Part shown: piece after piece, positions 5,501 through 8,263 of the stretch | How the letters are laid out: every line of letters begins with the position of its first letter | Numbering within the stretch: position 1 is the stretch's first letter | Source of the DNA: Patescibacteria group bacterium | Lineage (GTDB): Bacteria > Patescibacteriota > Patescibacteriia > 2-01-FULL-39-33 | Direction: 5' to 3' | Assembly: GCA_041662745.1 (NCBI GenBank) | Contig: JBAZRV010000002.1 | Coordinates: 150,001-182,000 of the forward strand | Length of the DNA stretch: 32,000 nucleotides | The notes under the pieces: generated by a model | Databases searched by the model: none | Told to the model about the DNA's origin: nothing | What the model saw: only the letters and a program-made list of their open reading frames with translations | Program-made: the position numbers and the translations under genes

Positions 5501-5577
5501 GGACATTTAGCTCAGTTGGTTAGAGCGTTCGATTCACATTCGAAAGGTCACAGGTTCGAATCCTGTAATGTCCACCA
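5501..5577 (+). tRNA. tRNA-Val (anticodon CAC), CCA encoded
   Basis: Acceptor GGACATT/AATGTCC, D arm GCTC-AGTTGGTTA-GAGC, anticodon stem TTCGA/TCGAA with loop TTCACAT, T arm ACAGG-TTCGAAT-CCTGT, then ACCA. Confidence 0.9.
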
Positions 5578-7032
5578 GTTCGGAAATGTCAAATTTTGTT
5601 GGTTATTTTGGCCGCCTTGGGCGACCAAATCATACGGAATTTTAAAGTCCAAAAGCAATTGGCGGTTTTGTAAAATGCGGTTCGACCCGATATTTTTTAG
5701 AAATGCAGCCAGTTCCTTTTTCTCTGGGCTCTGCATTAGGATATTGGCTTGGTTGAGCGATAAAATAAACTCACGAGCCGGTTCGACCCAAGAAACGCCA
5801 TTCTGTTCAAAATCTTGGATTTTCTCATTAAGTTCTAACTTTCGAGTTAGGATTTTTTGTTTTCTACTGGTATATTCTTCAGTCGTGATTGTCTCGCTTA
5901 AATAGACATCAAGCAGTTTTTCTAATCGCTGGTTAATATTTTCCAATTCGCTTTTAAGATTTTGAACAGTAATGATTGCCTCGCCCTTAGCCTGTTTTTC
6001 CTCTTTGTCTATCTCAAACAATATTTTCTCGGTTTCTTGAGTCGAAATAGAAACTTTTTGAAGATAATTTTTTATCTGATTTTCCAATTCTTCTTCGCGT
6101 AAAAAATGTTTTTCGAGGCAATTCTGCTTTTTCTTGGTACAACGATAATAATTATGGCCTTTCTGTGTCTCGGCCGTAATACTGCAACCGCAAGAACATT
6201 TCAGTAGTCCAACAAAGGGAAAATCATGCTTTTTAATCCTGCCTCGCTTCTTGCCTCTTTGTCGCATGACATTTTTTACTTCTTCAAAAAGTTTCTTAGA
6301 AATCAACGGCTCGTGAGTGCCCTCAAATACTTCTCCGTCATATTTCATTAGCCCAGTATAGAAAATGTTTTGCAAAAGCGTGAAGAAATAACTTGTCCTA
6401 ACTCTTTTGCCGTGAAAGCCCGTCAAATGGTGTTCTTCGCAGAACCTCTCTAAATCGCCCAATGAATAATCCTCAGTGGCGTAGAGGTCAAATATCTGTC
6501 TAATTAGCGGGCCTTTAATAGGGTCGACATCTATACCTCTCGTTTTGGGATTATTCAAATAGCCAATCGGGGCAAGCGAAGGCCAAACGCCATTTCTAAT
6601 CTTTTGCCTCATGCCTCGTTTTACATTTTCTCGCAAGTTGTCGATATAGTATTTGCTTTGGCCAAAAGCGATACTAAGCATGAATAATCCTTGCGGAGTG
6701 GGCTCAAACCAAAAGGTGGGGAATTTGAGGGCTTTTATCGCTCCCTTATCAATCATATGGATTATCTTGCCACCATCAACGCTGTTTCTCGCCAATCTAT
6801 CGGGGTGCCACGAAATAATACCACTTGCTTCGCCTTTTTCGATTCTGGCTAGCATTTCGCCGAATATTATTCGGCCTGGCTCTTTGGCAGTCTTGGCTTC
6901 CTGAAAGGAAGCGACAATTTCCAGTTTTTCTTTGGCGGCAAATTCTTTTAATTCAACTAATTGGGCTTCTATAGACAGTATCTGCCTATCTTCTTCCTCA
7001 GTACTCTTGCGAGCGTAAATAAAGTACTTCAT
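5548..7032 (-). CDS. Large serine recombinase (phage-integrase-type)
   Basis: 494 aa. N-terminal resolvase domain with YARKSTEEE (catalytic Ser) and PDRLARN. Recombinase domain, Cys-rich zinc-ribbon region (LLKCSCGCSITAE...YYRCTKKKQNC), then a coiled-coil region. The last ~40 codons lie in the 100-bp repeat and in antisense tRNA-Val. Confidence 0.9.
   Translation of the reverse strand: MKYFIYARKSTEEEDRQILSIEAQLVELKEFAAKEKLEIVASFQEAKTAKEPGRIIFGEMLARIEKGEASGIISWHPDRLARNSVDGGKIIHMIDKGAIKALKFPTFWFEPTPQGLFMLSIAFGQSKYYIDNLRENVKRGMRQKIRNGVWPSLAPIGYLNNPKTRGIDVDPIKGPLIRQIFDLYATEDYSLGDLERFCEEHHLTGFHGKRVRTSYFFTLLQNIFYTGLMKYDGEVFEGTHEPLISKKLFEEVKNVMRQRGKKRGRIKKHDFPFVGLLKCSCGCSITAETQKGHNYYRCTKKKQNCLEKHFLREEELENQIKNYLQKVSISTQETEKILFEIDKEEKQAKGEAIITVQNLKSELENINQRLEKLLDVYLSETITTEEYTSRKQKILTRKLELNEKIQDFEQNGVSWVEPAREFILSLNQANILMQSPEKKELAAFLKNIGSNRILQNRQLLLDFKIPYDLVAQGGQNNQQNLTFPNWWTLQDSNL
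5571..5670. repeat. IR1 left arm (100 bp), starting at TCCACCA of the tRNA-Val 3' end
   Basis: Block-by-block reverse complement of 5571..5670 equals 7091..7190 exactly (100/100). Confidence 0.95.
5672..5698. repeat. 27-nt repeat d (inside the recombinase 3' coding region, encodes KNIGSNRIL)
   Basis: aaaatgcggttcgacccgatatttttt. Its reverse complement recurs at 7299..7325. Confidence 0.9.
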
Positions 7033-7061
7033 GATGAGATTAATTAATGATTAATAATTTA

Positions 7062-7085
7062 GAATTTAAAAATTTTCTTTTACCC
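7062..7085. repeat. 24-bp perfect inverted repeat, arm A
   Basis: gaatttaaaaattttcttttaccc. The reverse complement is at 7326..7349. Imperfect symmetry continues outward into both divergent upstream regions. Confidence 0.9.
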
Positions 7086-7090
7086 TAATT

Positions 7091-7190
7091 CAAAACCGCC
7101 AATTGCTTTTGGACTTTAAAATTCCGTATGATTTGGTCGCCCAAGGCGGCCAAAATAACCAACAAAATTTGACATTTCCGAACTGGTGGA
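7091..7190. repeat. IR1 right arm (100 bp)
   Basis: Perfect reverse complement of 5571..5670. It ends in TGGTGGA (7184..7190). Confidence 0.95.
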
Positions 7191-7278
7191 GGATAATGGA
7201 CATAGCTCGAACGCATTTTCGGGCCGTCGCAGACGGCACTGATTTTCCCCCAAAAATTAAGCCCGAATTCTGAACTTT
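7184..7278. repeat. IR2 left arm (95 bp, element X in reverse orientation)
   Basis: The reverse complement equals 8169..8263 exactly (95/95). It shares the heptamer 7184..7190 with IR1. Confidence 0.95.
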
Positions 7279-7298
7279 CAAGACTGCCAATGAGCCAG

Positions 7299-7325
7299 AA
7301 AAAATATCGGGTCGAACCGCATTTT
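7299..7325. repeat. 27-nt repeat d, inverted copy
   Basis: aaaaaatatcgggtcgaaccgcatttt is the exact reverse complement of 5672..5698. Confidence 0.9.
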
Positions 7326-7349
7326 GGGTAAAAGAAAATTTTTAAATTC
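7326..7349. repeat. 24-bp perfect inverted repeat, arm A'
   Basis: gggtaaaagaaaatttttaaattc is the reverse complement of 7062..7085. Confidence 0.9.
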
Positions 7350-7382
7350 ATTATTAACATAATTAATTAACTCATAAATAAT

Positions 7383-8048
7383 ATGAACCAAAAAACTTTA
7401 AACATTATTTTTGGAATCGTCATCGTTATTTTAGTTGTGGCTGTAGCCTATTTTGCTTTTGGTAAAAAAGCTGAACAGTTAAGTGATCAAAATGAAAACA
7501 TTAATGTTCCTTTGGTGGACAACAATCAAAATTTACCAACAGCCGAACAGAATCAGAATGTTAATGAGCCAGCAGTGGCCGTGAATACAAACCAGCCAGT
7601 GGTAAATCCCACTCCACCTACAAATCCGATGGCTGACTGGAAATCATACAATAGTAGCAGTTTTAGTATAAAGTATCCTACTTATTTATCGCAAAAAGCC
7701 AAAGAAGATGAAGTTAAATCGCCAGTAACTTCGATAGTATCTTTTCAGGGTACTGCACCTCAAAGCAATTACGGTTCTCTGCTTTCAATTGAACAAATGG
7801 TCAATCAAGGCGGATTAACTTTAACTGATTGGACTAATGAAATAATTTCTCAATCAAAATGGATTAAGCAAGGTTCGGTAAAAATATCCGGTCAAACTGC
7901 TTATATCCTGGTTTTACCAGAAACTGATGCTGGTGCGCGTTACTTTTTCTTGAGTAAAGACGGCCGAACAATGTTTGTTATGACAATACAGCATTTTGAT
8001 CAAACAACAATTGATTCAATTATTTCCTCATTCTTATTGAAAAAATAA
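7383..8048 (+). CDS. Hypothetical membrane-anchored / secreted protein with an N/Q/P-rich linker
   Basis: 221 aa. N-terminal TM (IIFGIVIVILVVAVAYFAF), then a low-complexity NQN..PV linker, then a C-terminal domain with no recognised motif. Confidence 0.6.
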   Translation: MNQKTLNIIFGIVIVILVVAVAYFAFGKKAEQLSDQNENINVPLVDNNQNLPTAEQNQNVNEPAVAVNTNQPVVNPTPPTNPMADWKSYNSSSFSIKYPTYLSQKAKEDEVKSPVTSIVSFQGTAPQSNYGSLLSIEQMVNQGGLTLTDWTNEIISQSKWIKQGSVKISGQTAYILVLPETDAGARYFFLSKDGRTMFVMTIQHFDQTTIDSIISSFLLKK

Positions 8049-8085
8049 TATTCTGATTAAGAATTAAAAGAATTTGCCGCCAAAT

Positions 8086-8148
8086 CAATAAATTTTCAAA
8101 CTCTGAATTATTTGAAAATTTATTGAGATGATTTTTAGTAAAAAATCA
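8086..8148 (+). terminator. Two AT-rich hairpins downstream of the hypothetical gene
   Basis: caataaattttcaaa (8086..8100) pairs with tttgaaaatttattg (8111..8125). A tgattttt-agt-aaaaatca hairpin follows. Confidence 0.4.
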
Positions 8149-8168
8149 TTGAAAAACTGGAAATTGTC

Positions 8169-8263
8169 AAAGTTCAGAATTCGGGCTTAATTTTTGGGGG
8201 AAAATCAGTGCCGTCTGCGACGGCCCGAAAATGCGTTCGAGCTATGTCCATTATCCTCCACCA
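8169..8263. repeat. IR2 right arm (95 bp, element X), ending in TCCACCA just upstream of the ZIP gene
   Basis: Perfect inverted copy of 7184..7278. It contains the hairpin CCGTC-tgc-GACGG nested in TTCGGG...CCCGAA. Confidence 0.95.

Follow-up and report, generated by a model that had tools for sequence, protein, structure and literature searches.

A probable large serine recombinase element with a second, inverted attP at the 3′ end of a Patescibacteria tRNA-Val gene

We analyzed a 32,000-nucleotide stretch of the genome of a Patescibacteria group bacterium (contig JBAZRV010000002.1, positions 150,001–182,000; hereafter the window, in whose coordinates positions are given), in which a recombinase gene and a tRNA-Val gene meet within a chain of perfect inverted repeats (IRs). 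Taken as a whole, the locus is probably an integrated small mobile element that is driven by a large serine recombinase (LSR), inserts at tRNA 3′ ends and carries a spare, inverted copy of its attachment site attP. We are considerably more confident of its parts: the three junctions at which a shared heptamer occurs are very likely attL (tRNA-Val joined to the arm P′), an inverted attP (P′ joined to P) and attR (P joined to the flank of a ZIP transporter gene), and the element very likely belongs to a family found in many other Patescibacteria.

Inverted repeats, attachment sites and the exchanged recombinase tail

Both repeats are exact. IR1 (5571–5670) is the perfect reverse complement of 7091–7190 (100/100 nt) and IR2 (7184–7278) that of 8169–8263 (95/95 nt); the two overlap in the heptamer TGGTGGA at 7184–7190, and its complement TCCACCA stands at 5571–5577 and 8257–8263. 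The first-pass annotation of this DNA had reported these repeats and the heptamer at three junctions, and base-by-base comparison bore it out. Perfect inverted repeats of 95–100 nt cannot arise by chance within 32 kb. IR1 is the P′ arm present twice and IR2 is the P arm present twice. The features of the locus, named according to the reading above, are as follows.

5425–5496: tRNA-Ala gene.
5501–5577, plus strand: tRNA-Val(cac) gene with encoded CCA (ARAGORN; Rfam 76.7 bits).
7032 to 5548, minus strand: LSR open reading frame (ORF), 494 aa.
5571–5577, plus strand: attL core TCCACCA, common to the tRNA 3′ end and the element; in relatives the crossover lies in the discriminator/C74 region.
5571–5670: IR1-L, the P′ arm at attL, with the last ~33 conserved recombinase codons on its minus strand.
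5671–7090, minus strand: recombinase segment between the IR1 arms, holding the recombinase body with its promoter and 5′ untranslated region (5′ UTR).
6896–6912, minus strand: 7-bp hairpin GCTTCCT TTC AGGAAGC, recombinase nt 121–137.
7091–7278, plus strand: internal complete inverted attP, composed of IR1-R (P′, 7091–7190), the core (7184–7190) and IR2-L (P, 7184–7278).
7279–7382, plus strand: conserved junction module, with copies of recombinase nt 138–157 (7279–7298), of nt 1335–1361 (7299–7325) and of the promoter/5′ UTR (7323–7382).
7383–8048, plus strand: cargo gene for a 221-aa membrane-anchored protein with a weak PsbP_2 match.
8061–8168, plus strand: copy of recombinase nt 79–120 (8061–8084 and 8151–8168), split by a 66-nt insert (8085–8150) and abutting the distal end of the P arm.
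8169–8263: IR2-R, the P arm at attR, with core TCCACCA at 8257–8263.
8264–9022, plus strand: B′ flank of the original attB and ZIP transporter gene, likeliest start 8279.

The recombinase has a resolvase-type catalytic domain (PF00239, E=4.4e-21, residues 4–150) together with the PF07508 (Recombinase) and PF13408 (Zn_ribbon_recom) domains that characterize LSRs, and a structure model of a homologue shows long helices at residues 331–411, the coiled-coil insertion of LSRs. Its identity to phage LSRs is at most 26%, and its match to solved structures (PDB) is confined to the catalytic domain. Judged by this domain content, the protein is a divergent LSR.

The first-pass annotation placed the recombinase gene between the IR1 arms; instead, the ORF crosses IR1-L and ends at a stop codon 23 nt inside tRNA-Val, so that its final seven codons (TLQDSNL) are antisense to the tRNA. 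On the plus strand, IR1-R continues the recombinase frame: an ORF at 7103–7273 repeats the last ~29 residues to NWW and then reads RIMDIARTHFRAVADGTDFPPKIKPEF and a stop, and this spare recombinase 3′ end is followed by a terminator-like hairpin with a T-run (7223–7237). Because the recombinase reads through IR1-L into tRNA-Val, integration appears to have replaced its native tail and terminator, and because IR1-R/IR2-L carries both of these, the internal junction can be recognized as an intact inverted attP. Perfect IRs had been thought an unexpected product of LSR integration; with a complete attP at the middle junction, they are simply the arms that this site shares with attL and attR. The earlier proposal of a ~2.7-kb element at the tRNA-Val 3′ end stands, with the outer heptamers (TCCACCA at 5571 and 8257) as the direct repeat of the tRNA end that marks the insertion of a genomic island.

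Homologous proteins show the same exchange of tails. In those at least 90% identical to the window recombinase, the sequence agrees with it as far as NWW, and what comes after depends on the tRNA next to the gene. Of 120 homologues, the majority end in a tail antisense to a tRNA T-arm (xDSNx or xESNx) and a minority in a native-type one; the internal site encodes the conserved native tail W-x-x-I-[LM]-x-I-[AV]-R-T-x-F in every IR1-bearing locus. Even inside single clusters of proteins at 90% identity, at least seven different tRNA tails are attached to the same recombinase, which indicates that movement between tRNAs is recent and promiscuous.

In the structural literature on LSR–DNA complexes, the half-site motif of attP lies 5 bp further out than that of attB. 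Right, internal and left sites were put in register by the TGG complementary to CCA. On the tRNA side the T-loop motif TCGAA starts at +19 (33 of 35 sites), and the internal (P-arm) sites have it at +24 in 28 of 35 cases, including the window attP, so that the outer motif of attP is 5 bp farther from the center than on the tRNA side, as LSR attB and attP sites require. tRNA-Val(cac) is the B half-site of attB, and its T-loop TTCGAA the presumed motif of the zinc-ribbon domain. Departures of attL and attR from attP place the crossover in positions 3–6 of TGGTG(G/C), the discriminator/C74 region, and one locus narrows it to positions 3–4. At the level of sequence, the att geometry is thus canonical for LSRs.

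In some elements the recombinase reads into a foreign P arm, and such foreign right arms are P-type arms of other lineages, most simply acquired by tandem integration into attL. Rfam scans of the non-tRNA “right” sites and of the P arm returned no RNA family, after which we dropped the idea that the P arm mimics the 3′ end of a transfer-messenger RNA or another RNA. A likeness of recombinase nt 100–120 to the P′ half-site amounts to only ~10–13/16 in A/T-rich sequence. The internal attP also holds a strong promoter-like match, TTGACA-17-GATAAT (7169–7197, plus strand, 11/12), with its −35 hexamer in the P′ arm and its −10 hexamer in the P arm. The match exists only on an intact attP and aims at the terminator-like hairpin 25 nt downstream; similar hexamers are present in the internal sites of relatives.

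The family in Patescibacteria: layout, cargo and alternative arrangements

Comparison of 81 related loci, from 80 species-representative genomes and one relative, shows how common the layout is. IR1 is present in 57 of the 81 and IR1 together with IR2 in 26, the latter figure being 23 of the 37 among loci with 2.5 kb or more of sequence upstream. A tRNA gene lies on the opposite strand at the end of the ORF in 53 of the 81, and 12 tRNA types are represented. More widely, 7,881 of the 8,000 homologues scored reach E ≤ 1e-20, and species-representative genomes contain at least 592 copies. Identity between IR arms ranges from 87 to 100% in the 57 loci, with a median of 100% and many values of 87–99%; L004, the nearest relative whose flanks are long, has a different cargo gene and arm identities of 95% and 91%. 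This layout is thus what elements of a very large tRNA-targeting family of Patescibacteria normally show at rest, and not the trace of a recent accident. Some sites vary between elements yet agree in both arms of each element, and homologous exchange between the arms probably keeps them identical. L004 also has two P arms (8406–8498 and 9756–9848 of that locus) with different terminator hairpins (GCCGTCGCCGACGGC vs GCCACAGGTGGC), each self-complementary, so these arms come from different lineages.

Although the cargo differs between relatives, its surroundings do not. In 27 of 27 loci, with recombinases 50–92% identical, the cargo segment has the same ends: nt ~83–119/120 of the element's own recombinase in antisense copy at attR and, at the internal attP, an antisense promoter/5′ UTR followed by nt 1335–1361 and nt 138–157. 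These copies are 92–100% identical to the element's own recombinase gene; the order and boundaries of the junction module are the same in all 27 loci, and its 157/1335 junction recurs in “mini-rec” ORFs. In the window, the inverted pieces lie at 7279–7298, 7299–7325, 7323–7375, 8061–8084 and 8151–8168, and had been overlooked. The 8085–8150 insert carries two perfect hairpins and may be the cargo-gene terminator or a small mobile hairpin; inserts of 35–66 nt occur at nt 101/102 in L007, L004, L026, L019 and L035.

Formally, and on sequence grounds, the cargo segment can be described as a gutted recombinase segment, circularized by a join of nt 1361 to −53 and opened again precisely at nt 121–137. 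That 17-nt interval is the hairpin listed above, which the cargo segment has exchanged for the long P-arm pair. Across the family the hairpin is 95% paired, 4/7 of its pairs have changed on both sides and 0/500 shuffles reach its score; compensatory changes keep the pairing although the encoded residues vary. As sources of the cargo segment, simple dimers of a one-attP circle and single inversions within it were tried, and none gives the observed order. Two origins fit, if only formally: either a recombinase unit entered the hairpin of a circularized recombinase segment, or a simple element and a cargo element were fused.

One recombinase, 99.75–100% identical in DNA among the relatives compared, occurs in three arrangements. 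The standard form stands at tRNA-Leu(taa) in 16 contigs (L113 and others). In L112 the recombinase lies behind tRNA-Arg(gcg) and reads into an intact attP and then into the opposite end of the cargo segment, as would be expected if integration had gone by way of the other attP; the attP downstream in L112 is the internal attP of L113 in inverted orientation, identical over 201 nt (100%). In L111 the recombinase segment alone is flipped. The recombinase segments of L111 and L112, identical to that degree, thus have the other orientation relative to the tRNA. The first-pass annotation had proposed two invertible segments, and these near-identical relatives (L111 and L112 vs L113) do show other orientations, but none was seen at the window locus, and the two orientations of the recombinase segment occur between related loci at different tRNAs, not within one population. 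Cargo does differ within a population: among the tRNA-Leu contigs, whose recombinase and chromosomal flank are 99.9% identical, identity ends exactly at the boundary between the nt 1335–1361 copy and the promoter copy.

Other relatives supply further forms. L041, whose termini overlap by 51 nt, is a circular contig that contains a recombinase with its native tail, an attP, a cargo segment and an inverted P arm. L068 is a simple one-attP form (a reverse-complemented P arm, the nt 138–157 and nt 1335–1361 copies, promoter and recombinase), and recombinase-less cassettes or arrays with a 45–62-aa “mini-rec” ORF stand at tRNAs in L100 and L102. In L113 two serial cargo cassettes, with an extra partial P arm between them (55 nt, 91%), occupy −2381 to −148 relative to the recombinase start, and in L100 direct attP-like sites separate the cassettes; both look like cassette arrays adjoining tRNA genes. 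L112, L088 and L006 have hybrid arms whose exchange points lie inside the arms, a signature of homologous recombination rather than of crossover at the core. Ongoing inversion or gene conversion, as raised earlier, is plausible for the family, with these arms pointing to homologous exchange, and was not seen at the window locus itself. Two apparent cases of rearrangement did not survive inspection: L006 as a clean recombination between an internal attP and tRNA-Lys was downgraded because five of the initial 25 nt of its P′ arm are mismatched and betray a hybrid history, and a single-locus flip between L070 and L075, which have opposite arrangements at tRNA-Ala(cgc), was rejected because their flanks are not homologous.

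The remainder of the window includes an upstream cell-envelope glycosylation cluster (396–4450; GtrA-like protein, NAD-dependent epimerase, two family-2 glycosyltransferases and DUF2304) and a gene for a SIMPL-domain protein (4522–5316), both ordinary context unlinked to the element. Downstream, at 10371–13588, lies a diversity-generating retroelement with paralogous target genes (10371–11057 and 11118–11729), an Avd-like ORF (12092–12556, minus strand) and a reverse transcriptase ORF (12530–13588). Its template repeat (12002–12123) differs from the variable region at 11590–11711 by 15 mismatches, 15/15 at template adenines, and from that at 10918–11039 with 23/26 at template adenines.

Proposed mechanism and competing explanations

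We propose that the free form would be a circle in which two inverted ~190-bp copies of attP separate the recombinase segment from the cargo segment, each copy carrying the last ~33 recombinase codons, the native tail and the terminator. An ordinary attP × attB reaction at the attP overlapping the recombinase 3′ end, with crossover at the tRNA discriminator/CCA and the T-loop as the attB-type motif, would have produced the arrangement in the window. Such integration would fuse the recombinase to tRNA-antisense codons and would not touch the other attP, which stays as a spare. With this spare site and the identical arms, the latter presumably maintained by homologous exchange, it would then be possible for the recombinase segment to flip (restoring a full-length gene), for the circle to integrate via the other attP and for cargo to be swapped. 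The tRNA-fused form, antisense to tRNA read-through, would be the stable end state, as 53 loci against 3 suggest. We regard the two-attP circle as free form, and this role for the spare site, as an evenly balanced proposition.

The proposal predicts particular junctions. With the recombinase segment flipped, tRNA-Val and the 100-nt arm should be followed by GAATTAGGGTAAAAG; with the cargo flipped, IR2-L should be followed by GACAATTTCCAG. The empty site should join tRNA-Val to ATATATCTTATG, the circle junction should run from the cargo end through P, TCCACCA and P′ to the recombinase 3′ end, and the reconstructed full-length recombinase should read ...NWWRIMDIARTHF...PEF.

LSR integration is unidirectional, and a directionality factor reverses it. 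Since attL keeps the tRNA half-site and shares its other half with attP, a forward attP × attL reaction could invert the recombinase segment repeatedly without such a factor, and each flip would toggle between a full-length enzyme and a tRNA-fused, antisense-transcribed one. The spare inverted attP might in this way turn a one-way integrase into a self-limiting flip-flop and, with the hairpin and the cargo scaffold, into an integron-like cargo-swapping platform at tRNAs. This extension is a tentative one, and we doubt it more than we believe it.

Several observations weigh against the mobile-element reading as a whole or against its details. In the 2.7-kb element we identified no candidate directionality-factor gene and no excision route. 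The conserved hairpin and the permuted cargo layout are left unaccounted for. The standard arrangement is found at 53 loci and one with an upstream tRNA at 3, a dominance which means that flipping must be rare or one-way. The relatives with flipped or alternative arrangements, L112 and L006, have the hybrid P′ arms described above, which points to homologous recombination or separate histories rather than to a clean recombinase-driven flip. In the circular L041 an N gap conceals what remains of the second attP. AlphaFold, applied to a homologue with a native tail, gave a predicted local distance difference test (pLDDT) score below 50 over residues 448–508, so that the tail is modelled with low confidence. 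Finally, protein look-ups with ZIP, cargo and recombinase returned only the same contig and a 901-nt Logan fragment, with no empty site or circle. A metagenome scan with the 32-nt 3′ half of tRNA-Val likewise gave no empty site or alternative junction for the window locus, its only hit being an unrelated genome (L098). That metagenome contig has, at 3469–3520 and 11 nt past the tRNA, an attR-type site of a different subfamily (CGGTGTGTTTA...TCCGAACGGATTTT), which suggests that such elements crowd around tRNA clusters.

Of the other explanations, the one that survives best is a fusion, by homologous recombination at the promoter module, of a one-attP autonomous element with a recombinase-less cargo element, the second attP being a functionless by-product. 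Forms like both supposed parents exist, as the simple form L068 and the recombinase-less cassettes of L100 and L102, the promoter/5′ UTR is duplicated at 86% identity, and L088 and L004 each combine arms of different lineages. An accident of this kind fits poorly with a double form that is in the majority across lineages 50–92% identical and has nucleotide-exact boundaries, which favors selection or a regenerating process, and a fusion covers the origin of the form and not its maintenance. We think it unlikely.

It is improbable, though worth stating, that the locus is a resident phase-variation switch whose recombinase acts mainly as an invertase, with flips that regulate the cargo, the recombinase or ZIP and with mobility secondary or extinct. 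The segments are indeed bounded by inverted core-containing sites, relatives show both orientations of the recombinase segment, and the promoter-like sequence spans the internal core. The hin and gin genes contain an enhancer, and the structured cis element in the 5′ coding region of this recombinase recalls it. Yet recombinases at least 90% identical occur at seven or more tRNAs with varying cargo, which shows active mobility; the half-sites follow attP/attB logic and are not identical hix-like sites; one orientation is heavily dominant, unlike a balanced switch; and the enzyme is a 490-aa LSR, not a ~190-aa invertase.

A third explanation, very improbable in our view, starts from the hairpin: a mobile recombinase unit with ~190-bp terminal IRs would insert at the conserved hairpin, possibly in a single-stranded folded (dumbbell) form, with the paired arms serving as attP. 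In every element examined the P-arm pair does replace the 17-nt hairpin between flanks identical to the element's own recombinase gene, and the covariation of the hairpin indicates single-stranded pairing. Against this, serine recombinases need duplex sites and make double-strand breaks, the element encodes no enzyme that would carry out such an insertion, neither target duplication nor independent copies of the unit were found, and the pattern may also reflect descent from a permuted recombinase segment.

An assembly artefact, that is, a chimeric or fold-back join made by assembler or amplification, is effectively refuted: assemblers typically stumble on perfect repeats about as long as a read or k-mer, and many family members lie on short contigs ending at repeats, but window 208–12150 is 100% identical over 11.9 kb to an independent MEGAHIT k141 contig whose k of 141 exceeds and spans each arm, the layout recurs in dozens of genomes from different assemblers with many arms at 87–99%, impossible by repeat collapse, and the junctions have the properties, including the motif offset, expected of attL, attP and attR. 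This disposes of the chimeric join that the first-pass annotation had wished to see excluded. The Logan fragment mentioned above (L003, SRR6484324; window 7298–8198), a k=31 contig, stops at its right end 30 nt into IR2-R, as expected. Its left end falls exactly at the 7298/7299 junction of the recombinase-piece copies, which implies that SRR6484324 has a variant sequence or another junction immediately left of 7298.

If the mobile-element reading is correct, thousands of Patescibacteria genes annotated as “recombinase family protein” would form one architecturally distinct class of tRNA-targeting mini-elements. These elements move fast between tRNAs and swap cargo, and they probably fragment assemblies and rearrange small Patescibacteria genomes. 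Genome engineers could care about a natural LSR whose attB motif is the near-universal tRNA T-loop and whose own gene contains attP, and about a built-in second attP that may permit reversibility without a directionality factor. The covarying hairpin in the coding region and the permuted cargo scaffold are directly testable.

Comparison with known systems

Neither this family nor any natural element that carries a second inverted attP turned up in the literature, our coverage of which was partial and does not amount to proof. Several known systems share individual traits with it. In Hin, Gin, Cin, Pin/PinQ and Min, too, a serine recombinase gene lies inside inverted crossover sites and adjacent segments share a site. 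Those are small invertases (~190 aa, with a C-terminal helix-turn-helix) that act at identical short sites with a Fis-dependent enhancer, whereas the window has a mobile element with attL, attP and attR and a 494-aa enzyme with LSR domains. The 2-micron and plastid flip-flop circles likewise parallel the proposed free circle, divided as it would be by long identical IRs that contain the recombinase target, and in both cases the arms are kept identical. The window element differs from 2-micron in having no replication function, and an LSR is not expected to recombine two identical attP sites. In integrons a tyrosine recombinase (IntI) acts on attI and folded attC; the enzyme here is a serine recombinase, and cargo swapping beside a recombinase gene is an analogy only.

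The “suicidal” tyrosine integrases of the SSV type in archaea have the attachment site within the integrase ORF (PMC7253208), and there, as here, integration at a tRNA alters the integrase gene. The SSV-type gene is split in two by a tyrosine enzyme; the window element has a serine enzyme, exchanges only the tail and retains an inverted spare 3′ end, so it does not belong to that type. The pTN3 integrase of Thermococcales makes tRNA-to-tRNA chromosomal inversions (PMC5495485), and the recombinase segment of L006, between tRNA-Lys and tRNA-Val, invites comparison with such events, though either its recombinase or homologous recombination may have placed it there; the pTN3 enzyme is an archaeal tyrosine integrase. 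Tycheposons are small cargo elements at tRNA 3′ ends that form tandem arrays with fast cargo turnover; a few use an LSR, most having tyrosine recombinases, often with replication genes (10.1101/2020.12.28.424599). Unlike the window family, they have not been reported to carry an internal inverted attP or a recombinase-derived cargo scaffold.

LSR elements and prophages (phiC31, Bxb1, A118, SPbeta and SCCmec Ccr) have the same domain order of Resolvase, Recombinase and zinc ribbon with a long helical insertion, and the same attP × attB reaction to attL and attR, with a short common core and a 5-bp motif offset. The window family departs from them in targeting many tRNA 3′ ends through a T-loop recognition motif, in having attP inside the 3′ end of the recombinase gene, in its second inverted attP and in the tiny size of the element.

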